From assembly GCF_055900595.2 (NCBI RefSeq), contig NZ_CM148325.1: 64,000 nucleotides of DNA. One strand, 5' to 3'. A model generated the notes under the pieces. The model was not told the origin of the DNA, made no database searches, and saw only the letters and a list, made by a program, of their open reading frames with translations. The position numbers and the translations under genes are program-made. Position 1 is the first letter of the stretch. Each line of letters starts with the position of its first letter. Of the stretch, positions 3,001-45,472 are shown piece after piece.

Positions 3001-5131
3001 CACGCTGGATGTTATCTACACGGTGATAACCAGCCCGGACTCACCGAGCGCGAAATTCTGGGGACACATGCCGGACACCTTTACCAGTTCGGCAGGCGTC
3101 ACCTTCAGACGACCGCTCCTGAAAGCCGAAGCGACTTCAGGGTCATCGATTAGCACTAACGGTAATGGTGAAGTGTGGTCGTATATGAGCAACGTTCAAA
3201 ATTTAACATCGACAGATTGTCCGCTGGAGAATCAACCGCGCAGTAATGAATTGTTGGATTTGTATAATGATCATCCCAACGGCGCGATAATGACTGACCT
3301 GGGGCTGCCGATATATGCAGGCAAGTGGTGGGCTTATGATATGGTCATGCCGGATTTATATACGTGGCAGTATCAGACTGTCAGCCTGAGCGCAGGAGAT
3401 ATCGCGAAGAGCTCGGCAAACAACGCGCTGATGCTTTGCCTGGCGAAGCCGCATCCGGCAGGCGTCAGCGTAATGTTGACGTCATCCGCAATGGATAACG
3501 CCAGAACCCTCAGTAATGGCGGGCGACCCAGCGCGTCAGTGAAAAAAGGTAACCCACTGCCAATTGTGGTGACGGTCAAAGATCGTGATGGCAACCCGCT
3601 GGCGGGAGAGGCCGTGACGCTCAGGCGTGGTTCAGCGATGAGTCGTTCAGGAGCAGGAGTGGGCACGCCGGCAAATGCAATGACGTTGACAGAATTGACA
3701 CCTGTGTCGGCGGAGTTTTCTCTGGCCGCACACGATACGCAATGGCAAGGTTTCACCGGTAGTGATGGTACGGCCACTTTCAATGTTGAACAGCCTGAGA
3801 CCATCGGCCTGGCTATCTCGTTCACCGCTATACTGGCGCGAGATGTCGCAACTACCAGCGTCATTGATGCGATCTTTACCGTCGTCACCAGCCCGGATTC
3901 CGCAATGGCGACCTACTGGGGCCATATGCCGGATACGGTAACGGCGGAAAACGGCGTGGTCTTTGAACGGCCTAAATTGTTGAAAGAGCTGCCGTCGAGC
4001 GCCGGAGTCAGTCAGGTGACGGATAACAATGAAGTGTGGCCGTTGTTTAAGGCAACGCAAAGGGAAGATAGCAGCCTCAGTCCTTGTGAAGCGGCACGTC
4101 GGCCATTGAGCGATGATTTATTATCGCTCTACGCGCGCTATCCGGGGAACACGCTGACGACTCAAATCGGCTGGTCTACGAAGTATGCATGGTGGGCACT
4201 GGATAACAAGCAGGGGAATGCCCTGGTTGTCAGTCTGAATAATGGTTTTGAGTCGTCGACGGCGAGTACGGGGTATCAGGGATGTCTGGTCAATCCCCGC
4301 GCGACCGTCTCCAGCGTCACGCTGACATCGACGGCGATAGATGCCACTACGCAGGCGGCGAAGGTAAAAAAAGGTGAAGCCGCGCCCGTCGTTGTTACCG
4401 TAAAAGACAGCGCCGGGAAGCCGGTACCTAATGTCGCTTTCACCTTAAAACGTGGTGATGCCGTGCCGCGTAACAGCGGGGCGACGTTGTATGGTGATGT
4501 TGCGGCGATGGATGATATGACGGTACAACCTGCCAGCGGGACGGTGGTAACGCTGGCTGACAGTGGGAATACGATCGACGGTGTGACAGGGGCGGACGGT
4601 ACGGCAAGTTTTGCCGTTCGTCAGGATAATACGCCAGGATATAAAACGCCGTTGACGGTGACGCTGACGGATAACGCCACAATAACGGCGACGCTGGATA
4701 CGATTTTCACCGTGCCGACCAGCCCGAATGTCGCCACGGCGTATTTCTGGGGGCATATGGCGGATACCGCCACCGTAAGTGGCAAGACGTTACATCGCCC
4801 GCTATTGAAATCAGAGTTGCCGTCAGGGGCTACAGCGGCAGTAGCGCCAACGGTGAATAATGAAATCTGGGCGCTGGCACATGTGATCGATGCTCAAAAA
4901 TGGGATATTGCAAAGCAGTGCGGTGACTTTAGTAGAGCACCGAGCTATACCGATTTACAGTCATTGCATAGCGGTTTTAGCGCGCTGGGATGGCCATCAT
5001 CGATAAGCTTCCCCTATTTCTCTACCGATCGGGCCGGTTCGTTCTATTGTGGTATGGATGAAGGGGCGGGGACACAAAACTGCGGTATTCAGGCATCCAG
5101 TACCGCAGGGTTTGCGACTTGTTTCCAGTAG
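2..5131 (+). CDS. Giant repetitive Ig-like (BIG-domain) surface protein, RatA/RatB-like; 5' end lies outside the window
   Basis: Open frame continues to the window start (no in-frame stop upstream of the ORF-track Met at 59). Six tandem ~285-aa units each carry VKKGE..V.VT.KDAQGNP and FTVVTSPDSP..WGHMP.T motifs. Position beside xseA matches the rat/shd-type adhesin islet of enterobacteria (recalled). Confidence 0.6.
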   Translation, partial: VYVSCLTTANKPASSITLDVVDNAQWAAGNNAAKLKKGETLQVKVTVKDAQGNPLTDMPFKLSRGDGYTRTGEKHIAGSGDALVAPVVINSGLADETTLNDTAGFYTAMTGSDGSKILNITRPDTHGTKTALTATLYSDPTKKDSLDTIFTVVTSPDSSKAKMWGHMPETLTAADGTVFKRPLLIKELSSQTGRTAIFEDNENWALFTQTQANSTSNGCGTSYVPTQAGLLSLFDNHAGNTIKTVQGWPVVTRYLSSTPDNTGMEQRNYKAVDLGNGTSAMVSTSTLDLLTCQTTPVTTVSQILLEAADPAALIYVDDTLSVVKAKKGEESVVRVTTKDAQGNPVGNAAFILKRATSINRRYTSATASVGALTVTDAWGNTRSNFQATTEMIYGVTGADGSTTFTLKQDNSTGLRTDLTASLDGVSSVQATLPMVFTVVTSPDSPKANFWGHMPETVTAADGMTYKRPLLFKELTNNYARYSTFENGEDWARFSVVQSNNTDMDGCGAEYMPTLDGLQSLYSANSGNAMSTVQGWPVANSYLTNTPSDTQPSNRYYNVVQLNSGAVSQIVTTVLALQTCRTTPAVIASQVSLEPADATQFVKVDDTLSAIKVKKGDEVVIRVTTKDAQGNPVGNTPFTLKRSSSFNRQNALVTMQTVSVTPAAASTVDTNASATVYGVTGPDGTTTMTLRQDASTGLKTDFYALLNDTGVSSNTLPVIFTVVTSPDTPLAANWGHMAETFTSSKGVTFKRPFLKAELSGGTAVTTNNEVWSRLTATEKTDASKAGCDESYQPLMTDMQGLYADYPNNQLGTVLGLPTSAGYMWAYDMMTVSGSSWSNQAYSLVNGQTVQASSSYTAVVMCLVEPHTVPAMIEITSTAQDAAKTVSNGGRPSAVAKKGETIPLTVTVRDSTGNPVPYADFTLTRGTTLDRSKATVNSSADDLTVKSLIPANSDAGLTANGAKVLRTTGSDGTATFEVSQNATTGLATPITVTLARDTTKTATLDVIYTVITSPDSPSAKFWGHMPDTFTSSAGVTFRRPLLKAEATSGSSISTNGNGEVWSYMSNVQNLTSTDCPLENQPRSNELLDLYNDHPNGAIMTDLGLPIYAGKWWAYDMVMPDLYTWQYQTVSLSAGDIAKSSANNALMLCLAKPHPAGVSVMLTSSAMDNARTLSNGGRPSASVKKGNPLPIVVTVKDRDGNPLAGEAVTLRRGSAMSRSGAGVGTPANAMTLTELTPVSAEFSLAAHDTQWQGFTGSDGTATFNVEQPETIGLAISFTAILARDVATTSVIDAIFTVVTSPDSAMATYWGHMPDTVTAENGVVFERPKLLKELPSSAGVSQVTDNNEVWPLFKATQREDSSLSPCEAARRPLSDDLLSLYARYPGNTLTTQIGWSTKYAWWALDNKQGNALVVSLNNGFESSTASTGYQGCLVNPRATVSSVTLTSTAIDATTQAAKVKKGEAAPVVVTVKDSAGKPVPNVAFTLKRGDAVPRNSGATLYGDVAAMDDMTVQPASGTVVTLADSGNTIDGVTGADGTASFAVRQDNTPGYKTPLTVTLTDNATITATLDTIFTVPTSPNVATAYFWGHMADTATVSGKTLHRPLLKSELPSGATAAVAPTVNNEIWALAHVIDAQKWDIAKQCGDFSRAPSYTDLQSLHSGFSALGWPSSISFPYFSTDRAGSFYCGMDEGAGTQNCGIQASSTAGFATCFQ
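440..5000 (+). repeat. Six tandem ~855-bp coding repeats inside the RatA-like gene
   Basis: The accagcccgg / ccagtccagat core of the TSPDSP motif recurs at about 461, 1321, 2170, 3031, 3890 and 4721, giving a period of roughly 830-860 bp. Confidence 0.7.
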
Positions 5132-5178
5132 TCTTATCGGGTCTGTAAGCGGGGGAAAGTCTGGTACGCAATACGTCT

Positions 5179-6576
<1,398 letters not shown>

Positions 6577-6619
6577 TTATTCAGTCGATAGTAACCCGCC
6601 CTCCGGGGATAGCAAGCAT

Positions 6620-6670
6620 TTTTTGCAAAAAGGGGTAGATGCAATCGGTTACGCTCTGTATAATGCCGCG
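6620..6670 (+). promoter_or_regulatory. Putative guaBA promoter region (-10-like TATAAT at 6659-6664)
   Basis: TATAAT hexamer about 44 bp upstream of the conserved guaB start, within the xseA-guaB divergent intergenic region; -35 not confidently assigned. Confidence 0.35.
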
Positions 6671-6707
6671 GCAATATTTATTAACCACTCTGGTCGAGAT
6701 ATTGCCC

Positions 6708-8174
6708 ATGCTACGTATCGCTAAAGAAGCTCTGACGTTTGACGACGTTCTCCTCGTTCCTGCACATTCTACCGTTCTGCCGAATACCGCTGACCTCAGC
6801 ACCCAGCTGACAAAAACTATTCGTCTGAATATCCCTATGCTCTCCGCAGCAATGGATACCGTAACGGAAGCGCGCCTGGCTATCGCCCTGGCTCAGGAAG
6901 GCGGTATCGGCTTTATCCACAAAAACATGTCCATTGAACGCCAGGCTGAAGAAGTTCGCCGCGTGAAAAAACACGAATCTGGCGTGGTAACCGATCCGCA
7001 GACTGTTCTGCCAACCACGACGCTGCGCGAAGTGAAAGAGCTGACCGAGCGTAACGGTTTTGCAGGCTATCCGGTTGTGACCGAAGAAAACGAACTGGTC
7101 GGCATTATCACCGGTCGTGACGTGCGTTTTGTTACCGATCTGAACCAGCCGGTTAGCGTTTACATGACGCCGAAAGAGCGTCTGGTAACCGTGCGTGAAG
7201 GCGAAGCCCGTGAAGTGGTGCTGGCAAAAATGCACGAAAAACGCGTTGAAAAAGCGCTGGTGGTTGATGATGAATTCCACCTGATCGGCATGATCACTGT
7301 GAAGGACTTCCAGAAAGCGGAACGTAAACCGAACGCCTGTAAAGACGAACAAGGCCGTCTGCGTGTAGGTGCAGCGGTTGGCGCAGGTGCGGGTAACGAA
7401 GAGCGTGTTGATGCGCTGGTTGCCGCAGGCGTTGACGTTCTGCTGATCGACTCCTCTCACGGTCACTCTGAAGGCGTTCTGCAGCGTATCCGTGAAACTC
7501 GCGCTAAATATCCTGACCTGCAAATCATCGGCGGCAACGTGGCAACAGCTGCAGGTGCCCGCGCGCTGGCAGAAGCCGGTTGCAGTGCCGTTAAAGTGGG
7601 TATCGGCCCAGGTTCTATTTGTACTACCCGCATTGTTACTGGCGTCGGTGTACCGCAGATCACTGCCGTTGCTGACGCAGTAGAAGCCCTGGAAGGCACC
7701 GGGATTCCGGTTATCGCTGACGGTGGTATTCGTTTCTCTGGCGATATCGCGAAAGCTATCGCTGCTGGTGCAAGCGCGGTGATGGTAGGCTCCATGCTGG
7801 CAGGTACGGAAGAATCCCCGGGTGAAATCGAACTCTACCAGGGCCGTTCTTACAAGTCTTACCGTGGGATGGGCTCTCTGGGCGCGATGTCCAAAGGTTC
7901 TTCTGACCGTTACTTCCAGAGCGACAACGCTGCCGACAAACTGGTGCCGGAAGGTATCGAAGGTCGCGTAGCCTATAAAGGTCGCCTGAAAGAGATCATT
8001 CACCAGCAGATGGGCGGCCTGCGCTCCTGTATGGGCCTGACCGGCTGTGGTACTATCGACGAACTGCGTACTAAAGCGGAGTTTGTACGTATCAGCGGTG
8101 CGGGCATTCAGGAAAGCCACGTTCACGACGTGACCATTACTAAAGAGTCCCCGAACTACCGTCTGGGCTCCTGA
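6708..8174 (+). CDS. guaB: IMP dehydrogenase
   Basis: Conserved N-terminus [25 protein letters not shown] begins at the in-frame ATG at 6708 (ORF track extends to 6639); CBS and IMPDH catalytic regions present ([11 protein letters not shown]). Confidence 0.95.
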
Positions 8175-8181
8175 TTCTCTT

Positions 8182-8202
8182 CGCCCGACTTCATGTCGGG
8201 CG
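8182..8202 (+). other. Stem-loop in the guaB-guaA intergenic region
   Basis: Inverted repeat cgcccgac-ttcat-gtcgggcg followed by an AT-rich run; possible intra-operon attenuator or processing site. Confidence 0.3.
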
Positions 8203-8242
8203 ATTTATATTATCTGTTTCACTTGCCTCGGAATAAGCGTCA

Positions 8243-9820
8243 ATGACGGAAAACATTCATAAGCATCGCATCCTCATTCTGGACTTCGGTTCTCAGTACA
8301 CCCAACTGGTTGCGCGCCGCGTGCGTGAACTGGGTGTTTACTGCGAACTGTGGGCGTGGGATGTGACAGAAGCACAAATTCGTGACTTCAATCCAAGCGG
8401 CATTATTCTTTCCGGCGGCCCGGAAAGCACCACCGAAGAAAACAGCCCGCGTGCGCCGCAGTATGTCTTTGAAGCAGGCGTACCGGTATTCGGCGTTTGC
8501 TATGGTATGCAGACCATGGCAATGCAGTTGGGTGGTCATGTTGAAGCCTCTAACGAACGTGAATTTGGCTATGCGCAGGTTGAAGTCGTAAACGACAGCG
8601 CACTGGTTCGCGGTATCGAAGATGCGCTGACAGCAGACGGTAAACCTCTGCTCGATGTCTGGATGAGCCATGGCGATAAAGTTACCGCTATCCCGTCCGA
8701 CTTCATCACCGTAGCCAGCACCGAAAGCTGCCCGTTCGCCATCATGGCAAATGAAGAAAAACGCTTCTATGGCGTACAGTTCCACCCGGAAGTGACTCAT
8801 ACCCGCCAGGGGATGCGCATGCTGGAGCGTTTTGTGCGTGATATCTGCCAGTGTGAAGCCCTGTGGACGCCAGCGAAAATTATCGACGATGCAGTAGCCC
8901 GTATCCGCGAGCAGGTAGGCGACGATAAAGTGATCCTCGGCCTCTCTGGTGGCGTGGATTCCTCCGTGACTGCAATGCTGCTGCACCGCGCAATCGGCAA
9001 AAACCTGACTTGCGTATTCGTTGACAACGGCCTGCTGCGTCTCAACGAAGCAGAGCAGGTTCTGGATATGTTTGGCGATCACTTTGGTCTGAACATTGTT
9101 CACGTTCCGGCAGAAGATCGCTTCTTGTCAGCGCTGGCTGGTGAAAACGATCCGGAAGCAAAACGTAAAATCATCGGTCGCGTTTTCGTTGAAGTATTCG
9201 ATGAAGAAGCGCTGAAACTGGAAGATGTGAAGTGGCTGGCGCAGGGTACTATCTACCCTGATGTTATCGAATCTGCCGCGTCTGCAACCGGTAAAGCTCA
9301 CGTCATCAAATCTCACCATAACGTGGGCGGCCTGCCGAAAGAGATGAAGATGGGCCTGGTTGAACCGCTGAAAGAGCTGTTCAAAGACGAAGTGCGTAAA
9401 ATTGGTCTGGAGCTGGGCCTGCCGTACGACATGCTGTACCGTCACCCGTTCCCGGGACCAGGCCTTGGCGTTCGTGTGCTGGGCGAAGTGAAGAAAGAGT
9501 ACTGCGACCTGCTGCGCCGTGCTGATGCCATCTTCATTGAAGAACTGCGTAAAGCGGACCTGTACGACAAAGTTAGCCAGGCGTTTACCGTGTTCCTGCC
9601 GGTACGTTCTGTTGGCGTAATGGGCGATGGTCGTAAATACGACTGGGTTGTGTCTCTGCGTGCCGTCGAAACCATCGACTTTATGACCGCACACTGGGCG
9701 CATCTGCCGTACGATTTCCTTGGTCGCGTTTCCAACCGCATTATCAATGAAGTGAACGGTATTTCCCGCGTGGTGTATGACATCAGCGGCAAGCCACCGG
9801 CGACTATTGAGTGGGAATGA
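8243..9820 (+). CDS. guaA: GMP synthase (glutamine-hydrolysing)
   Basis: 525-aa [43 protein letters not shown] ... PPATIEWE; class I glutamine amidotransferase plus ATP-pyrophosphatase regions. Confidence 0.95.
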
Positions 9821-9822
9821 TT
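9809..9822. repeat. attL core (direct repeat GAGTGGGAATGATT overlapping the guaA stop codon)
   Basis: Exact 14-bp copy also at 44813-44826; the left copy supplies the last guaA codons and TGA stop. Confidence 0.55.
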
Positions 9823-9866
9823 CGTTAACGCTTTTCTGCGATTAACACCCATCGAAAATAATACTA

Positions 9867-9895
9867 ACCGCCTTGATTTACAGGCGGTTTTTTTA
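9867..9895 (+). terminator. Rho-independent terminator downstream of guaA (prophage-supplied)
   Basis: Hairpin accgcc-ttgatttac-aggcggt followed by a run of Ts. Confidence 0.6.
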
Positions 9896-9938
9896 TTTTC
9901 AGTCATTAATAACCATCAGTTACTATCTGTTGTTTTTA

Positions 9939-11503: not shown

Positions 11504-12314
11504 TGTTTATTCCTTTAATCCAAAGGCACTCAGTTCTGATAACAGATCCTTTTTTACCAGCAGCGGCAGATTGCTTTGTCTCTTTACGCCAGCCGGTTAG
11601 CAAATCGTTATACATTTCGGTGTCGTAGCCGCTGATAACCACGCTTCCTTGTAACCGGGTGACGGTCTCCAGTAAGCGCAGGTGGGCACCATCGTCCATT
11701 TCGTGGCGATAATATTTGTTAGTCAGATTACGGGTGCTATGAACATACGGCGGATCGACAAAATGCAGCGTGTCGGCGGCGTCATGATCCAGAATACACT
11801 GGATGGCATCGCGGTTTTCCACCAGAACCCCTTCAAAACGCTGACCAACGGCGGCCAGATTATCGGGCATACGGCTCCAGATGTGTTGGGCCGTTCCACT
11901 GGCGCGTTTAGTGTCCAGCCGAAAGCCGGTAGTGCCTTTAGTTGCCCCGGCAGAACCGAAGCCCATCGTGGCGCGAATCACTAAACGCCTTGCCTGTTCA
12001 ACAGAATTTTTCCCATAGCGATAGGCCGAAATAAACTCGGTGCGGGAATAGGGTGTCAGGCTGCAGGCTTCAACCAGTCTTTCGCGCAGTTGTGGGGTAC
12101 GAAGAACGGCGAACAGGTTAACGACGTCGCCATCCAGATCGTTGTAAACCTCGGCGTAGCTACGTGGTTTTCTGAGCAGTACGCTGGCTGCACCGCCGAA
12201 GGGTTCCACATAGCATCTGTGGGCCGGAAAGTGGCTAATGATCCACGGAGCTAGTCGCCACTTGCCGCCGTGGTAGCGGATTGCAGGGTGCTTAATCATC
12301 CAGTTTTTCTCCAC
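11487..12314 (-). CDS. DNA adenine (N6) methyltransferase, Dam family (copy 1)
   Basis: SAM-binding motif YVEPFGGAASVLL and catalytic DPPY (FVDPPYVHSTRN). Confidence 0.8.
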   Translation of the reverse strand: MEKNWMIKHPAIRYHGGKWRLAPWIISHFPAHRCYVEPFGGAASVLLRKPRSYAEVYNDLDGDVVNLFAVLRTPQLRERLVEACSLTPYSRTEFISAYRYGKNSVEQARRLVIRATMGFGSAGATKGTTGFRLDTKRASGTAQHIWSRMPDNLAAVGQRFEGVLVENRDAIQCILDHDAADTLHFVDPPYVHSTRNLTNKYYRHEMDDGAHLRLLETVTRLQGSVVISGYDTEMYNDLLTGWRKETKQSAAAGKKGSVIRTECLWIKGINNENCH

Positions 12315-12901: not shown

Positions 12902-15559
12902 TTAACGTTGAAAAACCCAACACTTCACCGTCGCCGGGCGGCGCGGTGCGGCTGGGTAACGGCGGTTAAATTCAGCGTTGATGCCGCTGTTAACCGTTCT
13001 GACTTCAATAAACTTGTGGGTACGGCTGGTTTTTAGCACTCGCTTCAAATCGCTGATCGGCGGGATCTGCTGGCGGCGCTCGGTAGCCAGTTGAATAAAG
13101 TGGTTAAGGTTAACGGCGATAAGCTGTTCATCGCGCGAGTGGTTGAGCTGTGGTTCGTCGTCGCCATCGAGGAAGTCGAAAATATCCCAGAACTCCTGCA
13201 CCAGAGGATGGTCGGCGCTGATGGCCTGTTGGCGCTCCAGACTGAGGCGGATAAACATTTCTCTGGTCGCCTGTAGCTGCTCTTCCGTGACCGGAATAAC
13301 CAGCGCCAGCGCGTCGAGCAGCGCCATAAGCTGGGCGTGGTTTTTAATGATGCGGATATGGCGAATATCTGGGTGGGAGTGAAGTTGCTGCTCGTATAGC
13401 GGGATCTGACGGTTAACGCACTCCAGCACGGCCTGTTCCGCCAGCGCTGCCTTCAGCATAAAGCCGGAAAGCTGTTCTACCGGCAGGCGTTCGAGCTGCT
13501 CGGCAGCGACCTTGGTCTGAGTATTCTGGCCGCTGCGGTCGGTGTACAGGTGAATAATACGTTCCAGCACCGGGTTAGAGGCGCTAACATCGGCGTTTTG
13601 CGCAATCACAATCGCGCCCCGGAACGGCGGTTCATAGGTCTCGTTGCCGCTGTTACGCAGACCGCGAGAACGCACCGACCGCCCGTTATAGGCGGTTTTC
13701 AGCTCTTCCCAATCAAAGCCACGCTGCTTTGCCCCCTCCTGATTACGGTCACCCTCGATCAGCACCACCGGCATATTTGCTACCTGCGCAAAGTTGCGCG
13801 CGCGGGCGGCCAGCGTTGATTTAGACGGATCGAAACCTTCATAGTCGCGTCGGCCCAACAGTTTCCAGAGGAACTCTATCAGCGTGGTTTTACCGCTGCC
13901 GGGTTCGCCAACGATTTCCAGAAATGGAAAGCTCTTGTGCTTGTCGCGGATCTGTTCGGCAAACATCGTCCCAAACCAGTACGCCAGCGCCACAAACCCC
14001 TTTGCGCCAAACGCCTGCCAGAGTAGCTGGGGCCACTGGCTGTCCATCTGTTTTAAATTGTCGTTCAGCGTCAGGCTGACCGACTGGTTCAGGCTTTTAA
14101 GGCTAAGTTTGCCCATGTCGAAGAAGTCTTCTTCGTTGAGTGTGTACAGCCGACCATCGCGAACGGCCAGATCGTTGAACACGTAAGCGCGGTATTCTTT
14201 GCTGTAGCCGATAAAATCAGTGGTCTGGACAGTTTTGATTTTGGGAAGCTGCTTGAGCAGCAACTTATCTAACTGCTGACTGGTGCCGGTGAAGATGCCG
14301 CCCTGCGCGATATGCAGCAGGCGCTTTTTGAATTCTGAGCCGCTGGAAAGTTGGGAGCCGGTGAAGGTGTTTTTTATCGGTGGAGTGTCGTCGGGGAAGT
14401 TAATGCGAAAGTAATACCAGCTTTCGTCGGTAATGGTGTTGGCCTGATAGTAGAGGGCGGTCGGGTAGCAGTTGGCTATCTCAACAACGGCGGCTGACTC
14501 CTGTAGCGCTTTATGTTTGGCTTCTTCTTCGTCCAGCTCCTCTTTGCCGTTATACATCACGTTATCAAAGGCACGCATATAACGGTCAATATCCAGCTTG
14601 AACCAGTACAGGCGGCTGTCGAACTCGAAGTGAAACTCTTTGCGTTCGGTACGCTCATGCATCAGTAATGCTTTGGCATTCGGATTGGGAGCGATCAACA
14701 GTGAACCGTAGTAACGATATTTTTTAATCAGATCCGGGTTTAGCCGATCGCGCTGGTGCAAATCGTTCCAGTCCAGCTTGGTGCGGGAATAGGGCGTTTG
14801 TGCGGCGGTGGAAAGCCAGCCGTCGTCGCGGCTGCGTTTTACCCAGCGGCGGGTGTAATTCATGCCCGCTTTGTCGTTATCCAGCGCCCAGACCAGTAAA
14901 GGACGCTTTTTATCCACGAACAGCGCGGCCAGTTGGCTTAACGCCTGCGCCGGATAGTTGTTACAGGTCATCAGGGAAACGGCGGCAATGCCGTGGTGGT
15001 GCAGGGCGATAGCGTCAAAAATGCCCTCAACCAGCCAGATCTCCTGCTGTTCTTCCAGCTTAAGCGTTGGCAATTGCCACCATAGCCCGCTGTAAGCGCC
15101 GTGAAAATTGGCTTTGCGATCGCCGAAACGCTGTGGGCGGTCAACGATCCGCTCCCACCACACGCCGTCAGCCAGCGGGAAACGCACAGTGGCCGAGCCG
15201 AGATCGCGCCGTGCGTCATAGTAGTTCTCTTGAGCGTAACAGTTACGGAGCAGCGAAAGGTCAAAGCCGCGCATCTCGCGCAGGTAGGCATCGGCGGCGG
15301 CCTGTGGGTTTTCCGGGGTTGGGGGATATCTGTCTGACCAGCTTTCAAATAGATCCGGGTACACCTCTTTGATATGGATTTCGGCATTGCATTTATTCAG
15401 GCGACCGCAGCGCAGTACCCACGGGCTGATGGCGTAGGTGTACAGCTCTTTTTTCTGGCAGTCCGGGCAGACGCCCTGCCGCAGCCAGTCGCCCTGTTCT
15501 TTAAAGGAAAAATCGGCTAGCAGTCGCCGCGTAATTTCCTGATGAAGTTGTGGTTGCAT
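12902..15559 (-). CDS. Replicative primase-helicase (P4 alpha / HP1 Rep-like)
   Basis: N-terminal zinc-binding motif CPDCQKK ... CGRLNKC, TOPRIM-like EGIFDAIALHHHG and LDNDKAG (DxD), and Walker A GEPGSGKTTL. Confidence 0.75.
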   Translation of the reverse strand: MQPQLHQEITRRLLADFSFKEQGDWLRQGVCPDCQKKELYTYAISPWVLRCGRLNKCNAEIHIKEVYPDLFESWSDRYPPTPENPQAAADAYLREMRGFDLSLLRNCYAQENYYDARRDLGSATVRFPLADGVWWERIVDRPQRFGDRKANFHGAYSGLWWQLPTLKLEEQQEIWLVEGIFDAIALHHHGIAAVSLMTCNNYPAQALSQLAALFVDKKRPLLVWALDNDKAGMNYTRRWVKRSRDDGWLSTAAQTPYSRTKLDWNDLHQRDRLNPDLIKKYRYYGSLLIAPNPNAKALLMHERTERKEFHFEFDSRLYWFKLDIDRYMRAFDNVMYNGKEELDEEEAKHKALQESAAVVEIANCYPTALYYQANTITDESWYYFRINFPDDTPPIKNTFTGSQLSSGSEFKKRLLHIAQGGIFTGTSQQLDKLLLKQLPKIKTVQTTDFIGYSKEYRAYVFNDLAVRDGRLYTLNEEDFFDMGKLSLKSLNQSVSLTLNDNLKQMDSQWPQLLWQAFGAKGFVALAYWFGTMFAEQIRDKHKSFPFLEIVGEPGSGKTTLIEFLWKLLGRRDYEGFDPSKSTLAARARNFAQVANMPVVLIEGDRNQEGAKQRGFDWEELKTAYNGRSVRSRGLRNSGNETYEPPFRGAIVIAQNADVSASNPVLERIIHLYTDRSGQNTQTKVAAEQLERLPVEQLSGFMLKAALAEQAVLECVNRQIPLYEQQLHSHPDIRHIRIIKNHAQLMALLDALALVIPVTEEQLQATREMFIRLSLERQQAISADHPLVQEFWDIFDFLDGDDEPQLNHSRDEQLIAVNLNHFIQLATERRQQIPPISDLKRVLKTSRTHKFIEVRTVNSGINAEFNRRYPAAPRRPATVKCWVFQR

Positions 15560-15647
15560 TGCCAGTACCTTTATTCAGGTAATACTTACCCGTCGCATAG
15601 ACACGTTGTTTATGCGTTGTGGTTGTGAGTCTTTTATTTACTGAGCG

Positions 15648-15896
15648 TTACGCGATTTTCTGCTTTTGCAGAAATTGCCCGCGTGTGGATAGCGGTATGT
15701 GTATCTTAGGATTCGGGCAACCGCTGGGTACTACCGTTCCCATCACGGTCTCCATCGCGATAAATGAAAACGAACAGTTAACGTTCTTGCACTGGTAATA
15801 GAGCTTACGTACCAGCGGTGACATATATTCGCTGCTGCGAATTATCGCCTTACCGTCGCAGTGTGGGCATTTCATCATGTCCGATCTCCTTACCAC
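15648..15896 (-). CDS. ogr: Ogr/Delta-family zinc-finger late transcription activator
   Basis: CPHCDGKA ... YYQCKNVNCSFSF matches the Ogr/Delta C-x2-C ... C-x4-C zinc finger. Confidence 0.8.
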   Translation of the reverse strand: MVRRSDMMKCPHCDGKAIIRSSEYMSPLVRKLYYQCKNVNCSFSFIAMETVMGTVVPSGCPNPKIHIPLSTRGQFLQKQKIA

Positions 15897-16201
15897 TTTT
15901 AACTAACTGAAACACTAACGCTTTTCGTTAACGGACTGACGAAATAGTGTGATGCCGTTCAAAAAAATGATTCTTGCCATGCTGGACATCGAACGGTTCT
16001 GCTCCAGCGCTAATGCTTACAGTTCCGCGATTTCAGCGGGGAGCAGACGCATTGCCACCGGTTTGTTCGACATCACCCCGCGGGGTGCTCGTGAGCGTAA
16101 GACGTTCTCATTTGTTTTCATGGTGGTATATTGTGGTTATTAACATTACACAATCTATAATTCCCTCAATTGAGTGAATTGTCAATGGTAATTATATCCA
16201 A
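15897..16201. promoter_or_regulatory. Divergent switch region between ogr and the HTH repressor-like gene
   Basis: 305-bp non-coding region with AT-rich tract acaatctataattccctcaattgagtgaattgt (inverted ACAAT ... ATTGT ends) just upstream of the HTH gene. Confidence 0.4.
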
Positions 16202-16540
16202 ATGAAAGAATTTGGCATCCGTTTGAAGGAAGAACGTATCCGACTTGGCCTTGATCAAGACGGCTTTGGACAACTTGGGGGCGTGAAGAAAAACGCACAA
16301 AGTAACTATGAGAATGGACTGCGCAAGCCGGACAGTGACTATCTTGCTGGCATAGCGGCAGCGGGAGTTGATGTTCTGTATGTTCTAACAGGCAACCGCA
16401 CGCCTGTGGCTACGTTGTCCAGTAAAGAGAGTGTGTTGGTGGAGAACTATCGTTCTGCTACGCCAGAACACCAGTCCACCCTTGACACGGTTAGCGCTGC
16501 GCTTGCGCAACCGGGAGTAGGGAAAGCAGCTAAGGGATAA
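16202..16540 (+). CDS. HTH XRE/Cro-C1-type regulator, probable prophage immunity repressor
   Basis: N-terminal HTH FGIRLKEERIRLGLDQDGFGQLGGVKKNAQSNYENGLRKP; divergent from the early/late regulators; GC content like the phage backbone. Confidence 0.65.
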   Translation: MKEFGIRLKEERIRLGLDQDGFGQLGGVKKNAQSNYENGLRKPDSDYLAGIAAAGVDVLYVLTGNRTPVATLSSKESVLVENYRSATPEHQSTLDTVSAALAQPGVGKAAKG

Positions 16541-16580
16541 CGAGTAGAATGAATTTGGTTATTGTCTGTATGGAGGCAAA

Positions 16581-17153
16581 ATGAAGTTGAATAATCTGGT
16601 TGCTCTTTACAGGAACATGACAGAGCAAAAATTGGATAGGGTTAAATTCCCATACAGACACAATAATTTACATTTTGATGTATTTTTCTTTATTGATGGA
16701 AAACCGTTTGAGCTTCTTTTCGGAGCATTAGGCGCTAATCTTTGCTTTCGTCTAAAAGTCGAGAAGGGATTCGTCATAAATCCTAATCTGGGAAGTGAGA
16801 CTTATAAAGAATTATGCAAGGCGCTAGGTTTGAAATATGACCCTGCCAATCCATTTAGAACAAGTAAGTTTTTTGAAGATTTTGATGGGAAAATCCCTAC
16901 ATCGGTTACTGTTAAGAATAAGGCAAAATATACTGATATTGCTGTGCATGTCAGGGATGTTGAAGAAGCAGACAGAATATATTTCTGTGGATGGAAAAAC
17001 AACAATGAAGAAAAGAGTCATGTTACTGAAGATAATTTAAAGAAAACGAAAGAGTTTTTAGGGTATCAGGCTTTTCTTGTTTGTAAGGAAAAGAATATTA
17101 GCAGTAGATGGACTGATTTAGAAAATAAAGCAAAAGATTTTTATTTACCATAG
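16581..17153 (+). CDS. Hypothetical protein (cassette gene 1), no recognisable motif
   Basis: 190-aa ORF with RBS ggagg upstream, AT-rich codon usage, 40 bp downstream of the HTH gene. Confidence 0.5.
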   Translation: MKLNNLVALYRNMTEQKLDRVKFPYRHNNLHFDVFFFIDGKPFELLFGALGANLCFRLKVEKGFVINPNLGSETYKELCKALGLKYDPANPFRTSKFFEDFDGKIPTSVTVKNKAKYTDIAVHVRDVEEADRIYFCGWKNNNEEKSHVTEDNLKKTKEFLGYQAFLVCKEKNISSRWTDLENKAKDFYLP

Positions 17154-17167
17154 GATTGTGAGGTTAT

Positions 17168-18316
17168 ATGTCTGATATTTCATTAGGGTGCGTGGTTGTT
17201 CATAGGTTGATAAAAGAGCAACATAAAGATTTCGATCACTCAAAACCATATAGTCGCCGTGATACGGTTCTTGACCGAAATAATGAAATCGTAATTAAAC
17301 TAGTGTCCAGTATAGCCGCATTGTATGGTAAAAAATCTAATAGCTCGCATTATGGTATATTTAATTTAGATGAAACACGCAGGGGGCCTTTTCCAGCGGA
17401 ATTTGATAAATATCGGAATGATACATCCAAGAAGTTAGACGATGAATTGTTTATAGGATTATCAAAAAATGTTATGCATCAGTTATATATTGAGGCAAAG
17501 GATCGACCTGCTGCATCAGGAGGATTACTTCTTTTTGCTGATTATATCAGTAAATCCGTGCGTTACTTTCTTATTGCAATGATTAAGCAAAAGGAAGGTA
17601 TAGTTATTAGTGATAAATTAGAGCCAAAGGAGTTAGAGCATCTTGATCTGGCAAAACTAAACCAGGCGGCACGAATAAACTATGATTTGTATGATAAATA
17701 TATTTCCGCTGATGAGAATGAAAGACAGGATGTTAATTATTTAAGTTTTGTTAGTCCCAGTTCTAACCAGACAACTTCAGGGTATTTCATTACTGCCTTA
17801 GGTTGTGATAAAGGTAATACATCAACTAAAGCTACGAGTAATTTAATTAATGAATCTTTTAACTTCTTCAGAAATCATCAAGAATTAAAGGATAATGCCC
17901 GTAAATTTAAAAATGAAATTATTGAGTATTTATTCGATTGTTCTGAAAATAACATTTCAGCTAAGCTCTCTGTTGTTAGTGAGATGGCGGCGAAGCATAT
18001 GGTTAATTTAGAAGATGACATTAAAGATAAATTGTCAGAAGAATTATATGCTCATTTGAATAGTGAAAGTATTCGTGTGCCTGTGGAATTTAGGGTAAGC
18101 AAATCAGTAGTTAAGAAAAACAGAAATATTAAATATACAAGTGATAATGTTAATTTTGAGTTTAAATCTAGTTTACTAGGCAATACTCTTGATAATGAGA
18201 TATGCTATAATAAGAAAACTGGACATTTAACTTTTACTCGGATTACTCCTGAGAAAAAAAGTGAAATAGCTCAATTGCTTGATGAGTTAATAAAAGAAAG
18301 AAATAGCGAAAAATAA
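17168..18316 (+). CDS. NdpA/YejK-like nucleoid-associated-protein family member (cassette gene 2)
   Basis: N-terminal VVVHRLIKEQH and SGGLLLFADYISKSVRYFLIAMIK align by eye with YejK IALHQLIKRDE and [24 protein letters not shown] (sequence recalled from memory); further colinear similarity towards the C-terminus. Confidence 0.5.
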   Translation: MSDISLGCVVVHRLIKEQHKDFDHSKPYSRRDTVLDRNNEIVIKLVSSIAALYGKKSNSSHYGIFNLDETRRGPFPAEFDKYRNDTSKKLDDELFIGLSKNVMHQLYIEAKDRPAASGGLLLFADYISKSVRYFLIAMIKQKEGIVISDKLEPKELEHLDLAKLNQAARINYDLYDKYISADENERQDVNYLSFVSPSSNQTTSGYFITALGCDKGNTSTKATSNLINESFNFFRNHQELKDNARKFKNEIIEYLFDCSENNISAKLSVVSEMAAKHMVNLEDDIKDKLSEELYAHLNSESIRVPVEFRVSKSVVKKNRNIKYTSDNVNFEFKSSLLGNTLDNEICYNKKTGHLTFTRITPEKKSEIAQLLDELIKERNSEK

Positions 18317-18318
18317 GG

Positions 18319-18957
18319 TTGCTTAATATGTCATGTTTTGAAACGGTTGTTGAGCTTTTCAGATATGTAGGGCGTCCTAAATTTGATGCTATTAATAATC
18401 GTTTTTCAGCAACTATTTCTTATGATGCTCATATATATGAACTCTTAGTTTCTTTGCAACCTCATACAGCGTGGGGAGAAATTGAAGAGATTGTCATTGA
18501 TGATGTGGATATAGATGTTGATGATAGCCTTCCCGCTAAAGGAACATCAATAACACTGACAATCTCTATATCAACTGGAGCTAGTGAGTCATTTTTTATC
18601 GATATTAAAGATCTAATTCAAAAGTCTCCGATGTTAAATAGAGGTATTTTAAGAAAGTCTTTTTACTTGGTTGAGGAAGATTTTTATTTTAATGAAGGAA
18701 TGGTTGAGGGATTAGCAAAAATACCAGAACTATCTGTTTTAAAGAATCTTTGTGATTTTATTTTATGTCTATCAAAAGTTGCACACTACAGCAATAGTAA
18801 AAGTGATGATGTATGCCATAAGTTAGTTTTCTTGAAAAATACTAATGCTAAGTCATTACCTTTAATTATTGAAACTAATGTTGATTATTCACTTCTTTTA
18901 ACAGGTATTAAGGATTTAAAAATCATCGAATCTTTTTCTGATGAAAAAAAGCTATAA
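18319..18957 (+). CDS. Hypothetical protein (cassette gene 3)
   Basis: 212-aa ORF starting 2 bp after gene 2; acidic stretch IDDVDIDVDD; no recognisable motif. Confidence 0.5.
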   Translation: MLNMSCFETVVELFRYVGRPKFDAINNRFSATISYDAHIYELLVSLQPHTAWGEIEEIVIDDVDIDVDDSLPAKGTSITLTISISTGASESFFIDIKDLIQKSPMLNRGILRKSFYLVEEDFYFNEGMVEGLAKIPELSVLKNLCDFILCLSKVAHYSNSKSDDVCHKLVFLKNTNAKSLPLIIETNVDYSLLLTGIKDLKIIESFSDEKKL

Positions 18958-19001
18958 CGGATGATAATTATTTTGAGCGAAAAGGGATTTTCATTAATAC
19001 G

Positions 19002-19583
19002 GTGGTCGATTTTCTTGAATCAATCGATGTAAAGAAACAGTTTCATTTTTTATTCTGTGAGTGGGATGAATTTCTAAAACTATACCATAATAACCTCGGT
19101 GTATATCTTAGTGGTTTTTCATTTCATAAAGTAAGAAAGGAAGTGGCAGAGGCAGAAGCTAATTTAGCTGAGCGTTTTTCAAAAATAATGTCAGACATGA
19201 TAGCTAAGCTTTTAGGTATTCCTGTTTCTTTGGTTGCTACTTTTGGCATGATAAAATTAAATACCCTGCCGGAAATGTTAGTGGTTTTTTTAGGTGTATT
19301 GCTCACGTCGATAATTATGTTTTTTATTGTAAGAAGTCAATACACACAGTTTAGGATGATTTGTGATGCTAAAGATATTATATTTTCCCCATTAGTGAAA
19401 AAATCTGTAGGTTATACAGAAGATTTGAAAAAATTAGTATGCAATGCAAAGGATAATTTAGACAAAAATCAGGTCATGTTAAATCGTTACCTTCTTTTCT
19501 TTCAATGCTTATGCTGGATTCCGACAGCCTTAGGTGGTGGAATGATCTTAATGGCTATTATGGTTCATTTAGGATTACTATAA
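19002..19583 (+). CDS. Predicted membrane protein with two hydrophobic helices (cassette gene 4), putative effector
   Basis: Hydrophobic segments LLGIPVSLVATFGMI ... LVVFLGVLLTSIIMFFIV and LLFFQCLCWIPTALGGGMILMAIMVHLGL; 3' end overlaps the convergent gpD stop by 6 nt. Confidence 0.5.
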   Translation: MVDFLESIDVKKQFHFLFCEWDEFLKLYHNNLGVYLSGFSFHKVRKEVAEAEANLAERFSKIMSDMIAKLLGIPVSLVATFGMIKLNTLPEMLVVFLGVLLTSIIMFFIVRSQYTQFRMICDAKDIIFSPLVKKSVGYTEDLKKLVCNAKDNLDKNQVMLNRYLLFFQCLCWIPTALGGGMILMAIMVHLGLL

Positions 19584-20678
19584 ACTTAATTCCATTTCTA
19601 ATGCGGTGACATAACCAGTACCGCCATCCAACGTATGCACGCACCGCGTAATCACCCACGCGGTGCCATCAATTTCCGCCTTAAACCCCTTCACCTGCAG
19701 CGGTAATTCCGGGAACAAATCGGGCCGTCCACGCGCAAGATTCAGGCTGAACGTTGCCGCGCCGCGCTGTAGCTGCTCCCACGCGCTTTTTGCCGCTCTG
19801 TAGGCGTTATTTTTGTTGGCATAGGTGTGGCGCAGCACCTTGATATTTCCCTCTTCGCCAACCATCACGTTATCAGCATTGAATGAGGCGTCTGACGGCG
19901 GAGATTCTGTTGGTTGCGTTTGTGGACGGTTTTTCCGTGTCTTGCGCTTCATGTCAGTGGACTGCTTTTTTGCCTGCCGTGTATCCAGCCAGTAGGCCGT
20001 CACACCGGTATACGCCTCCCTGTCCGCGATGCTGAACCGGTGGCTGTCGCCGTCCTCGCGGGTAATGGTTGCGACCGGCAGCGGTTTGCCGCTGGCACTT
20101 TTACCGGAACCTGTCGGCATTAGCAGCAGAGCATCATTTTTCACGCAGGCGATAGCGCCGTGCAGTTGCGCCAGCCGGGTCAGGAAGGAGGCATCGGATT
20201 CGTTAGTCTGGTCAACGTGCTCAATGGCGATCCCAGCCAGCTCGCCGCTGACGGTTGATTCCAGCTTATGACGCGCCGCCACGGTTTGCACAATCGCGCC
20301 CAGCGTCGCATCATGGTAGCTCTGTTCCCGTTTAACGTTCAGCGAATCGCGGAAATCGGCGCTGCGGGCGCGGAGGCTGAGTACGTCCGGTGCGCCGCTG
20401 TGCTCCAGTTCGTCCACTGTGAAGACATTCTGGTGCATCACGCCGTCACCCTTCCAGCCTAGAGAAACCGTTAGCTTTTCGCCCTTTGCCGGAAACGCCA
20501 GCAGGCCGTCGCTGTCGTCCAGTTCGAGCTGCAGTTCGTCGGCCTCAAAGCCCCGGTTGTCGGTGATACGCAGGCTGATTAAGCGGTTGTCCAGATTCCG
20601 CGTAATGTCCTTACCGTTCAGCACCACGCTGTACTCCGGCTGCGGCTGGGCGTTTAAGAGTGCGTTTAACATCGTCAT
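19578..20678 (-). CDS. D: Tail protein D (P2 gpD-like)
   Basis: 366-aa ORF at the end of the tail operon, upstream neighbours U and T in P2 order; N-terminus MTMLNALLNAQPQPEYSVVLNGKDITRNLDNRLISLRITDNRG. Confidence 0.8.
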   Translation of the reverse strand: MTMLNALLNAQPQPEYSVVLNGKDITRNLDNRLISLRITDNRGFEADELQLELDDSDGLLAFPAKGEKLTVSLGWKGDGVMHQNVFTVDELEHSGAPDVLSLRARSADFRDSLNVKREQSYHDATLGAIVQTVAARHKLESTVSGELAGIAIEHVDQTNESDASFLTRLAQLHGAIACVKNDALLLMPTGSGKSASGKPLPVATITREDGDSHRFSIADREAYTGVTAYWLDTRQAKKQSTDMKRKTRKNRPQTQPTESPPSDASFNADNVMVGEEGNIKVLRHTYANKNNAYRAAKSAWEQLQRGAATFSLNLARGRPDLFPELPLQVKGFKAEIDGTAWVITRCVHTLDGGTGYVTALEMELSL

Positions 20679-26204: not shown

Positions 26205-26963
26205 TTAATTCAGGATAATCAGTTCTGATGTGGTGCTGGCTGGCTTTCCACCTACGGTATAGCGAATCCCTACCGTTGAGAATGTCAGGCCGTGGAAGAT
26301 ATCGCGCATTTCCGGGATGTCGTTAACCGAGATAATCATCCGGCCCTGCATGGTGCGCGCCAGCTCTGCCATACGCTGGTACTGCTCAAGGCCAAATGGT
26401 ACGCCGTAGCCTTCGGTTTTCCAGTATGGTGGGTCGCAGTAGAACAGGGTATGCGGGCGGTCATAGCGGCGAATACAGTCGGCCCAGTCCAGATTTTCAA
26501 TGCAGACGCGCGCCAGCCGCAGATGGGCGGCGGATAAATCCTCTTCCATACGCAGCAGGTTCAGGCGCGGCGGTGAGGTGGTGGCGGTACCGAACGTGCG
26601 ACTTTCCACTTTGCCGCCGAATGCCAGCTTTTGCAGATAGTAGAAGCGCGCCGCGCGCTGGATATCGGTCAGCGTTTCTTCCGGGGTGATCTGGAGCCAG
26701 CGGTACATTTCGCGGCTGACCAGCGACCATTTAAACTGGCGGACAAACTCTTCTAAATGGTGCTGAAGTACGCGGTAGAGGTTGGTAACGTCACCGTTGA
26801 TATCGTTCAGCACCTCGGCCTGTGCGGGCTGTTTCATAAAGAACAACGCTGCCGCCCCGCAGAACGGTTCAACGTAGCAGCGGTGTTTGGGAAACAGTGG
26901 CAGAATGTGTTTTGCCAGCCTGCGCTTACCGCCGATCCACGGAATAACGGGTAACGTATTCAA
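26205..26963 (-). CDS. DNA adenine (N6) methyltransferase, Dam family (copy 2)
   Basis: YVEPFCGAAALFF and FYCDPPYW motifs; sits at the position of the P2 Z/fun accessory locus between tfa/G and FI. Confidence 0.8.
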   Translation of the reverse strand: MNTLPVIPWIGGKRRLAKHILPLFPKHRCYVEPFCGAAALFFMKQPAQAEVLNDINGDVTNLYRVLQHHLEEFVRQFKWSLVSREMYRWLQITPEETLTDIQRAARFYYLQKLAFGGKVESRTFGTATTSPPRLNLLRMEEDLSAAHLRLARVCIENLDWADCIRRYDRPHTLFYCDPPYWKTEGYGVPFGLEQYQRMAELARTMQGRMIISVNDIPEMRDIFHGLTFSTVGIRYTVGGKPASTTSELIILN

Positions 26964-31642: not shown

Positions 31643-32241
31643 TACTGCGGCCCTCCGGTATTGCTACCCCCGCGCTCTACGCCTGTGTGCGTGTGGGTAT
31701 GAACGGTGACGCCGTTGGAGGTAAAACTGCCGCCGCTGTGGGTGTAAGCACCTTTAAGCGTGCCGCCTTTTTTAACCGACAGCGTGGCGGTTTCCAGATG
31801 CTGGGTGCAGACGACGAGCGGTGTATCCAGCGTGACGCGGGTGCTGGCTTCGACCAGTGCGGTCTTGATGCCGGTAGCTTTTAACGTGCTGGAGCGCGGA
31901 TCATATTCAATCACCGCACCATCGGGGTAAACGCTATGGTGAACCTGTTCATCCAGCAGCGGGGCGGGGTTGGCGTCAGAGTAAATGGCCGGAAGTGCCA
32001 CGGCGGTGGTTAACTCACCGCTTAAACAGAGCAGTAACACCTGTTCGCCTGTTGATGGCCGCCACCACGTCCGGGCATCACCGGCGCGTAGCGTCAGCCA
32101 CGGTATCCAGTTGGTGGTCAGTTCACCAGTGTGAATGCGTACTCGATCGCCCTTCACCTCTTCAACGGTGCCGGTACGGATCAGGTTTTCAATGCGCCGG
32201 TGCAGCTCGGCGAGGTTGGCTGGGTGGTTTGCGTCGCTCAT
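31642..32241 (-). CDS. V: Baseplate spike/assembly protein V
   Basis: 199-aa ORF preceding W in P2 order. Confidence 0.75.
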   Translation of the reverse strand: MSDANHPANLAELHRRIENLIRTGTVEEVKGDRVRIHTGELTTNWIPWLTLRAGDARTWWRPSTGEQVLLLCLSGELTTAVALPAIYSDANPAPLLDEQVHHSVYPDGAVIEYDPRSSTLKATGIKTALVEASTRVTLDTPLVVCTQHLETATLSVKKGGTLKGAYTHSGGSFTSNGVTVHTHTHTGVERGGSNTGGPQ

Positions 32242-32312
32242 GCCGGAATCATTGGGATTCGCGGGCGAAGAGGGAAGGGCTAAGGCTTGTAGGATAATGG
32301 GCTACAAGTAAA

Positions 32313-32332
32313 ACGCCCCTGAGTAGGGGCGT
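32313..32332 (-). terminator. Weak hairpin downstream of hicB
   Basis: acgcccct-gagt-aggggcgt stem-loop 16 bp after the hicB stop; poor U-run. Confidence 0.3.
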
Positions 32333-32347
32333 TGAACGAAAAAGAGC

Positions 32348-32683
32348 TTAACCGTGCGCAGCCTTCATCAGTGTATCGTTAATCCACTGGTTAACGCTTT
32401 TACCGGAGACTTCTGCCGCAACGTTAATGGCAGAGTGAATTTCAGGTGGAATACGCAGGCTGATTTTTCCGCTGGCCGGACGCAACGGCTCCCGGCCCCG
32501 TTCCTCGCAGTAAGCCAGATAGTCGTCTACCGCCTCTTCAAACGCTTTACGCAGATCGGCAACATTATCGGCATGAAAGCCAATGACATCCCGAATGCCT
32601 GCAACGTGACCAACAATGCATTGATCTTCATCGCTGTATTCAATTTTTGCGGCATAGCCTCTATATGTCATGGTATTCATCAT
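32348..32683 (-). CDS. hicB: HicB-family antitoxin
   Basis: N-terminal HicB-like region YRGYAAKIEYSDEDQCIVGHVAGIRDVIGFHADNVADLRKAFEEAVDDYL plus C-terminal ribbon-helix-helix ISLRIPPEIHSAINVAAEVSGKSVNQWI; overlaps hicA by 4 nt. Confidence 0.7.
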   Translation of the reverse strand: MMNTMTYRGYAAKIEYSDEDQCIVGHVAGIRDVIGFHADNVADLRKAFEEAVDDYLAYCEERGREPLRPASGKISLRIPPEIHSAINVAAEVSGKSVNQWINDTLMKAAHG

Positions 32684-32943
32684 GGTGTTACCCCTACAGC
32701 TTCAAGGAATGTTCTGGCATCGCGAACCTGATAGGCTTTCGCTTCTTTTTCCGGGTGTGGACGATGAAATGAAGCCACAACCTGATTAATTTCAAACCTG
32801 ACGCGGGAACCGTTTCCTTCCGTAGCAATAGCCCCCAAAGCAATAAATAAGGCTTCTATTTTTCGCCATTCCAGCGTGACAGGTGTTGGCGTAGAAAAAA
32901 CAGCTTGTAAGGTTTTTTTATGTTTGGCGCTTAACGTATTCAT
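32680..32943 (-). CDS. hicA: HicA-family mRNA interferase toxin
   Basis: GNGSRVRF ... HRPHPEKE pattern resembling the HicA G.H / RHP core; paired with HicB. Confidence 0.6.
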   Translation of the reverse strand: MNTLSAKHKKTLQAVFSTPTPVTLEWRKIEALFIALGAIATEGNGSRVRFEINQVVASFHRPHPEKEAKAYQVRDARTFLEAVGVTP

Positions 32944-32993
32944 ACAGGGTATTTTCCATAAGTTATTTTATTCTTCCGCCAAGATATAATGAT

Positions 32994-33017
32994 GATATCA
33001 TTTTTTGATATCATTTC
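32994..33017. promoter_or_regulatory. Direct repeat GATATCATTTT x2, putative hicAB operator
   Basis: gatatcatttt at 32994-33004 and gatatcatttc at 33007-33017 in the AT-rich region upstream of hicA, alongside a TATAAT-like element. Confidence 0.35.
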
Positions 33018-43976: not shown

Positions 43977-44011
43977 CCCCACCAACGACCAGCTCACTAT
44001 CAGAGCCACCA

Positions 44012-45457: not shown

Positions 45458-45472
45458 GACTCCTCCTGATTA

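Follow-up and report, generated by a model that had tools for sequence, protein, structure and literature searches.

The closest described relatives of the locus analysed here are two-gene anti-phage systems in which a nucleoid-associated protein (NAP) is encoded together with a second protein. DS-1, which protects Escherichia coli and was validated by DefensePredictor (Science 2026; PMC13092281), consists of the NA37-family protein WP_000355468.1 with a length of 391 amino acids (aa), followed by WP_000150292.1 with 404 aa. In the PANGU systems a YejK-like NAP coats the nucleoid and is freed when phage nucleases degrade the chromosome, whereupon it attaches to an acidic "DNA-mimicking" domain in its effector (Li et al., April 2026, bioRxiv 10.64898/2026.04.06.716658). 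According to the same work, the effector of type I PANGU is a GRel toxSAS (Pag1B, paired with the NAP Pag1A); that of type II, Pag2B, carries a DNA-mimic domain at its N-terminus and a transmembrane domain at its C-terminus. In type II, the NAP Pag2A departs from the nucleoid upon infection and binds the DNA-mimic domain of Pag2B with a dissociation constant of 19 nM, both genes are required, the phenotype is abortive infection, and phage T4 escapes via denA mutations (10.64898/2026.04.06.716658). Here we report on a block of genes located between a helix-turn-helix (HTH) gene and tail gene D of a prophage within a stretch of 64,000 nucleotides (nt) of contig NZ_CM148325.1 (assembly GCF_055900595.2), hereafter called the window. 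With a probability of about three in four, we read this slot of a phiE202-like prophage as holding a lone DUF6037 gene and a two-gene NAP-sensor defence system, a distant relative of DS-1 with type II PANGU architecture; its allele in the window is most likely inactive or attenuated.

A first-pass annotation of the window had presented the block as four tightly packed AT-rich genes, co-oriented with the repressor-like HTH gene and forming an undescribed abortive-infection system. The five plus-strand open reading frames (ORFs) on which this was based, that of the HTH gene, those of genes 1 and 2 (Table 1) and the ORFs 18319-18957 and 19002-19583, were all found again and are as closely spaced as claimed, with 40 bp between the HTH gene and gene 1 and 14 bp between gene 1 and gene 2. 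The claimed AT-richness is borne out by the composition profile, the GC content being 0.29-0.37 over 16500-19500 compared to 0.52-0.63 in both flanks. The number of genes, however, had to be revised, as the third and fourth ORF are halves of one gene split by a 1-nt deletion. The block thus is prophage cargo comprising three genes which belong to two unrelated modules, the DUF6037 single gene and a pair consisting of an NA37 gene and the gene of its partner.

That ORFs 18319-18957 and 19002-19583 constitute a single gene of 418 aa becomes evident from the alignment to E. coli GMF054, the sole genome among 5,426 complete E. coli genomes which contains the cargo DNA of the window (99.4% identity) and in which the gene is present as one uninterrupted 418-aa ORF. 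In line with this, the N-terminal half of PHROG 5023 (412 aa) matches the first ORF and its C-terminal half the second, the close homologues all measure 401-419 aa and span both halves, and a profile search yielded 991 family representatives at 50% identity, nearly all of them about 400 aa long. The ATG of the partner at 18328 lies 11 bp behind the NA37 gene, which ends at 18316. The only start available to the mechanical ORF of the C-terminal half is a GTG at 19002 that is not preceded by a well-placed Shine-Dalgarno sequence. In annotations, the two "hypothetical proteins" of the lineage carrying the deletion hence correspond to one frameshifted gene.

The two halves of the partner differ in composition. 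The N-terminal domain has an isoelectric point (pI) of 4.6-4.8 and a net charge of -11 to -15, and its acidic character is shared by 66 of 66 family members (median pI 4.76), whereas the C-terminal domain is basic and hydrophobic. In the intact protein, hydrophobic segments are present at residues ~291-309, 311-339 and 394-418, so that the hydrophobic helices ascribed earlier to the last ORF are real, although there are three, one of them strong, rather than two. The AF2 model of the intact partner (pLDDT, the predicted local distance difference test score, 82) shows an alpha/beta fold over residues 1-210 and a long helical C-terminal domain. A Pfam search with the intact protein gave no match, and a Foldseek search against AFDB50 returned uncharacterised homologues only. 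NCBIfam DS1_2 (NF053869, "anti-phage protein"), in contrast, matches the intact partner over profile positions 31-277 of 337 with 71.6 bits (6e-20), a score below the cut-off of that model. Since ten other representatives of the partner family reach only 70-104 bits as well, the DS1_2 model covers only a narrow clade. Comparison of the partner profile with DS-1B by hhalign gave a probability of 96.2% over 260 columns at 25% identity. By analogy, the partner may be regarded as Pag2B-like or DS-1B-like; we assigned the pair the architecture of type II PANGU because an acidic N-terminal domain and a basic C-terminal domain with hydrophobic segments fit the published description.

The lesion that splits the partner gene is the loss of one A from a poly-A tract: GMF054 reads GATG-A8-GCT while the window contains A7 at 18944-18950. 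The deletion is located at residue 209 of 418, i.e. at the junction of the two domains. We rejected a sequencing error as its cause since the exact split products of 209 aa and 193 aa recur on 355 and 377 contigs, respectively. The A7 deletion has become fixed in one lineage; the uninterrupted 418-aa form occurs on 178 E. coli, 42 Morganella and 10 Salmonella houtenae contigs. Among isolates, the tract is found as A6 (L053, L054), A7 (window), A8 (L001), A9 (L051, L052) and in an interrupted form (L007); in the A6 and A9 alleles, the C-terminal half is in frame with an ATG directly before the tract. There are at least six disruptive alleles of the partner gene, which include a frameshift in a T run (249 aa), a break into 294 + 128 aa and a truncation to 217 aa. 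In the A7 allele, the heptamer A_AAA_AAG (18945-18951) lies in the phase required for a -1 ribosomal frameshift, the conceptual product of which is identical to the intact 418-aa protein P0185. Because the deletion would uncouple the NAP-binding domain from the membrane domain, the partner allele of the window is most likely inactive or strongly attenuated. With its effector gene frameshifted, the window copy may fail to protect, and its N-terminal fragment would, judged by the published relatives, be a free NAP-binding domain.

Gene 2, for which a resemblance to NdpA/YejK had been noted before, indeed matches Pfam NA37 (PF04245) over its full length (model positions 1-322 of 325, 6e-45). It also matches phrog_3767 (4e-63), NCBIfam YejK (108 bits, below the cut-off) and NCBIfam DS1_1 (NF053868, "nucleoid-associated anti-phage protein"; 80.8 bits, 9e-23, likewise below the cut-off), and BLASTP aligns it to DS-1A with 26% identity over 214 aa (8e-9). 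This similarity is consistent with a Pag2A-like or DS-1A-like sensor. The listed members of its cluster are full-length, save those cut by contig ends. We would like to note that the NA37 gene of homologous pairs is split into two ORFs in a Serratia marcescens prophage (L003 6866-7999) and on one IMG/VR contig (L010 4868-6008), which means that both partners of the NA37 system are found broken in nature.

The linkage of the two genes was assessed in 17 IMG/VR loci and four further contigs encoding a partner homologue. In all 21 of these other loci an NA37 homologue is located directly upstream of the partner in the same order, and in none of them is DUF6037 present. Conversely, none of 24 other loci encoding DUF6037 homologues has NA37 or the partner within 5-6 kb. 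Since DUF6037 and the pair each occur without the other, the block consists of two modules and not of one four-gene system as had been supposed. The homologous pairs do recur in prophage accessory sites with variable neighbours, a check proposed along with the first-pass annotation. They occupy the slot between the HTH gene and gpD not only in the window prophage but also in GC-rich P2-like phages (L018, L019), the interval that separates the Q antiterminator from the lysis genes in lambdoid prophages (L006, L009, L013, L014, L017, L022), and a P4-like element (L005). A 169-aa gene upstream of NA37 in L019 was considered as a possible DUF6037 relative and rejected (hhalign probability 0.03%).

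Gene 1, which had been thought to have no recognisable motif, as had the third ORF, now recognised as the acidic N-terminal domain of the partner, matches Pfam DUF6037 (PF19503) over model positions 1-192 of 200 (2e-31). It is an independent single-gene moron: elsewhere, DUF6037 is found as a lone gene in moron positions, e.g. between antiterminator and holin genes or among tail genes, and the listed members of its cluster are full-length, save those cut by contig ends. DefensePredictor predicts DUF6037 to be defensive. A literature search on "DUF6037" retrieved no papers, and one on "rloE", after the name "RloE" which the protein bears in some records, unrelated matches only. The name may refer to restriction-linked ORFs of Campylobacter. 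DUF6037 may represent a new single-gene defence protein possessing a fold without solved relative, and constitutes a testable candidate.

The limits of the exchanged segment can be drawn from E. coli L725 and CEC15, which carry the same prophage with 97% identical flanks. In this prophage the slot contains a 362-aa NA37 protein and a 333-aa RelA/SpoT-like protein (L002 6470-8556 in L725), the latter matching PADLOC PDC-S33 with 1e-13. By its architecture, this pair would correspond to type I PANGU; tblastn detected no similarity between the NA37 proteins of L725 and the window, and an acidic C-terminal domain is not evident in the L725 RelA/SpoT-like protein (pI 6.5). Homology of the window to the L725 prophage ends at ~16513, inside the final nine codons of the HTH gene, and restarts at ~19610-19625, where D has its 3' end. 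These limits assign the HTH gene to the backbone and mark the slot as a true hotspot of exchange. The first-pass proposal of accessory cargo in a variable hotspot of the prophage is supported. The repeat finder revealed no repeats flanking the cargo block, and no Rfam family matched within 15400-20000.

As stated in the first-pass annotation, the gap between the HTH gene and gene 1 shows neither a visible promoter nor a terminator. Our consensus scan identified no terminator-like site in this gap and no plus-strand promoter-like site between 16133 and 17866; read-through from the repressor promoter probably accounts for transcription of the cargo. Of the profile searches proposed earlier, that against Pfam provided the expected NA37 match to gene 2, while the PADLOC-DB 2023 models, which are older than DS-1 and PANGU, matched none of the cargo proteins.

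If the pair acts like its published relatives, the following sequence of events may be envisaged. In the lysogen, the NAP would sit on the chromosome and be released once an infecting lytic phage degrades the host DNA. The released NAP would then bind the acidic DNA-mimicking domain of the partner, which could license the membrane domain to stop the cell, resulting in abortive infection. In the window allele, the 1-nt deletion in the A8 tract would uncouple the NAP-binding domain from the membrane domain and interrupt this chain. The notion of a DNA-associated sensor and a membrane effector acting by abortive infection, already contained in the first-pass annotation, agrees with the way in which DS-1 (PMC13092281) and type II PANGU are reported to work. 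The system is, however, not undescribed: a named and validated family exists (NCBIfam NF053868 and NF053869), and the pair is a divergent prophage-borne member of a kind of system described in 2025-26.

Several points weigh against the reading given above. The likeness to type II PANGU is one of architecture and not of a sequence comparison with PANGU^Ecu. DS-1A and DS-1B are only ~25% identical to the proteins of the pair, whose scores amount to about a quarter of the DS-1 equivalog cut-offs and fall below both of them (80.8 versus 330 bits for gene 2; 71.6 versus 315 bits for the intact partner, and 48.5 bits for its C-terminal fragment). In addition, DS-1A contains an N-terminal zinc ribbon which is missing from the NA37 protein of the window. 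In the published type II system itself, the activation of Pag2B is unresolved (10.64898/2026.04.06.716658). The subfamily considered here is known from its sequences alone, the suggested read-through transcription comes from consensus scans only, and the A7 allele could yield some full-length protein.

The last of these points leads to an explanation in which the A7 allele is alive. A -1 frameshift at A_AAA_AAG, a heptamer used by dnaX and IS911, or transcriptional slippage would produce a little full-length effector together with an excess of free acidic N-terminal domain, and the length of the tract would serve as a tunable or phase-variable switch, in which A8 may give the fused effector while in A6 and A9 an internal ATG may be in frame with the membrane domain. 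In that case, a costly abortive-infection effector could be tuned or phase-varied within a lysogen population. The exact phase of the heptamer, from which a -1 shift yields P0185, seems to speak for this, yet any loss of one nucleotide from GAA-AAA-AAA-G creates the heptamer automatically, for which reason the phase match is not independent evidence. Tract lengths from A6 to A9 do exist among isolates, but the A9 contigs start close to the tract and may be assembly artefacts; likewise, A7 is found on more contigs than A8, although this may reflect one heavily sampled clone. The C-terminal frame has remained unbroken in the A7 lineage and the break coincides with the domain boundary. On the other hand, no Shine-Dalgarno-like stimulator is present upstream and only a weak hairpin (-6.9 kcal/mol) downstream, the other disruptive alleles (249, 294 + 128 and 217 aa) fit simple decay, and family-wide the gene is a single ORF. 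On balance, we consider a functional A7 allele unlikely.

It is also conceivable that the NA37 gene and its partner serve the prophage itself, e.g. by superinfection exclusion at the membrane or by organising the prophage genome, instead of sensing damage to the host genome. In the loci examined, prophages carry the pair almost without exception, some partner homologues go by the name "phage-related membrane protein" in UniProt, and the incomplete understanding of Pag2B activation leaves room for such a role. We nevertheless regard it as quite improbable, given that the pair sits where morons are classically found, is read in the direction opposite to the late genes flanking it and differs between close prophages, and that validated relatives protect when cloned without any prophage. 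Finally, tight packing, common orientation and similarly low GC content, as well as the failure of the PADLOC 2023 models to match anything, would be compatible with all four ORFs, perhaps together with the HTH gene, forming one novel four-component abortive-infection system. Against this stand the merging of the third and fourth ORF into one gene, the loci described above in which the two modules occur separately (0 of 24 and 21 of 21), the presence of the HTH gene in a prophage with other cargo, and the fact that the design of a NAP plus a membrane protein is already published and modelled in NCBIfam; such a system therefore has very little probability.

The prophage which harbours the block adjoins guaA. 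On the minus strand it encodes, in this order, integrase, an AlpA-like HTH protein, DUF7673, an 885-aa toprim protein, Ogr and a 52-aa Arc-like protein; next come the HTH gene and the cargo on the plus strand, then D, U, T and the remaining late genes, again on the minus strand. This layout is that of Burkholderia phage phiE202 (genus Tigrvirus, family Peduoviridae) and not that of P2. In phiE202 the HTH gene gp21, homologous to that of the window, is followed by the cargo genes gp22-gp23 before gpD. The first-pass statement that the block fills a slot where P2 has no gene consequently missed the appropriate template, as the equivalent slot of phiE202 also carries cargo. HTH homologues are present in phiE202-like phages, and the HTH protein of the window is 99% identical over 104 aa to that of the L725 prophage, from which we conclude that the gene, save its last 9 codons, lies outside the swapped cargo; its product is the probable immunity repressor. 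The Arc-like protein, in phiE202 annotated as "Arc-like repressor" at the equivalent position, is probably the lytic-side regulator of the switch. Compared to GMF054 and L725, its gene in the window contains a premature stop replacing E19 (AEIAEL*; translations, tblastn showing 1 stop), a change that could interfere with the lytic switch; the prophage is otherwise intact, with all structural genes preserved in comparison with GMF054. Pattern matches in the switch region comprise a plus-strand promoter-like site at 16105-16132 upstream of the HTH gene (TTCTCA-16-TATATT with TG), minus-strand promoter-like sites and an imperfect 25-nt palindrome at 16150-16189 between the Arc-like and HTH genes. 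The palindrome overlaps promoter-like hexamers of both strands and could be an operator. The coordinates of the features are collected in Table 1.

Table 1. Features of the cargo slot and of the adjacent prophage backbone, in window coordinates.
Feature	Position	Strand	Basis or remark
Arc-like protein gene, 52 aa, divergent from HTH gene	15918..16073	-	translations of window and GMF054
Switch region	16105..16189		consensus scan and repeat finder, pattern matches only
XRE-type HTH protein, 112 aa	16202..16540	+	phrog_8 and phrog_4 regulator/repressor matches
Variable cargo region, ~3.1 kb, GC ~0.32	16514..19615		bounded by 3' ends of HTH gene and gpD
Gene 1, DUF6037 protein, 190 aa ("RloE" in some records)	16581..17153	+	Pfam match
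Gene 2, NA37/YejK-family nucleoid-associated protein, 382 aa	17168..18316	+	Pfam, PHROG, NCBIfam, BLASTP
Partner, N-terminal half, 209 aa, pI 4.8, net charge -11	18328..18957	+	acidic alpha/beta domain; ends two codons past frameshift
Poly-A tract, A7 in window, A8 in intact alleles, then G	18944..18951	+	alignment to GMF054
Partner, C-terminal half	18951..19583	+	conserved YLSGFSFHK helix, then transmembrane helices
Tail gene D, backbone	19578..20678	-	converges on cargo, overlaps cargo end by 6 nt

Some further observations concern the remainder of the window. Among the late genes, a putative antitoxin is encoded together with a Doc (death-on-curing) toxin at 37051-37610 on the plus strand, 100% identical to the copy in GMF054. 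The prophage possesses a DNA adenine methylase gene at 26208-26963 (minus strand), and a methylase-like ORF 32% identical to it is located near the integrase end (11592-12287, minus strand). Past the portal gene (window ~43976-46800, L050 33890-37119), GMF054 encodes two DUF262 proteins that are missing from the window, and the end of the prophage has the appearance of a second site of variable cargo. For a 151-aa hypothetical gene between V and S of GMF054 (L050 21326-21781), tblastn found no match in the window (32241-33019). The guaBA-xseA region of the host (window 5100-9900) shares 90-95% identity with 5,407 complete E. coli genomes, and only 8 reach 99% or more, so that the host belongs to a divergent Escherichia lineage.

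Taken as a member of the NAP-sensor defence class, the pair would represent a divergent subfamily placed in prophage moron hotspots of P2-family, lambdoid and P4-like elements. The recurrent breakage of its membrane effector, with one disruptive allele, fixed in a lineage, located exactly where the sensor-binding domain meets the membrane domain, may inform on the cost and regulation of abortive-infection effectors.

Compared to the known systems, the pair shares with type II PANGU the succession of a YejK/NA37-like protein and an effector with acidic N-terminal and C-terminal transmembrane domains, the bicistronic arrangement (11 bp, thus less than 40 bp, between the genes) and the origin, as a validated example is reported to stem from E. 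coli. It differs in that the effector of the window is split, its transmembrane segments lying in a separate frame (in the intact P0185 both domains do reside on the same polypeptide), in the additional DUF6037 gene upstream, and in its carriage by a prophage, which the PANGU paper does not mention. With DS-1 it has in common the gene order of NA37 and partner and the protein sizes (391 + 404 aa in DS-1, 382 + 418 aa in the window when intact), both proteins being remotely homologous. The cI-rexA-rexB operon of phage lambda resembles the locus in being prophage-encoded, with rexAB located directly downstream of the repressor gene, and in the logic of a cytoplasmic sensor and a membrane effector leading to abortive infection. 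No homology of the cargo proteins to RexA or RexB emerged from Pfam, PHROGs or PADLOC, and in the window the sensor is a nucleoid protein while the sensor-binding and membrane functions share one polypeptide. The slot between HTH gp21 and gpD of phiE202-like Peduoviridae agrees in position and backbone arrangement but holds other cargo genes, namely gp22, which encodes a membrane protein, and gp23. Type I PANGU, absent from the window itself, would be represented in the identical slot of the sister prophages of L725 and CEC15, where the same sensor logic is combined with another effector. The occurrence of a membrane-effector version and a RelA/SpoT-like-effector version in one slot suggests natural effector swapping around the same kind of sensor.

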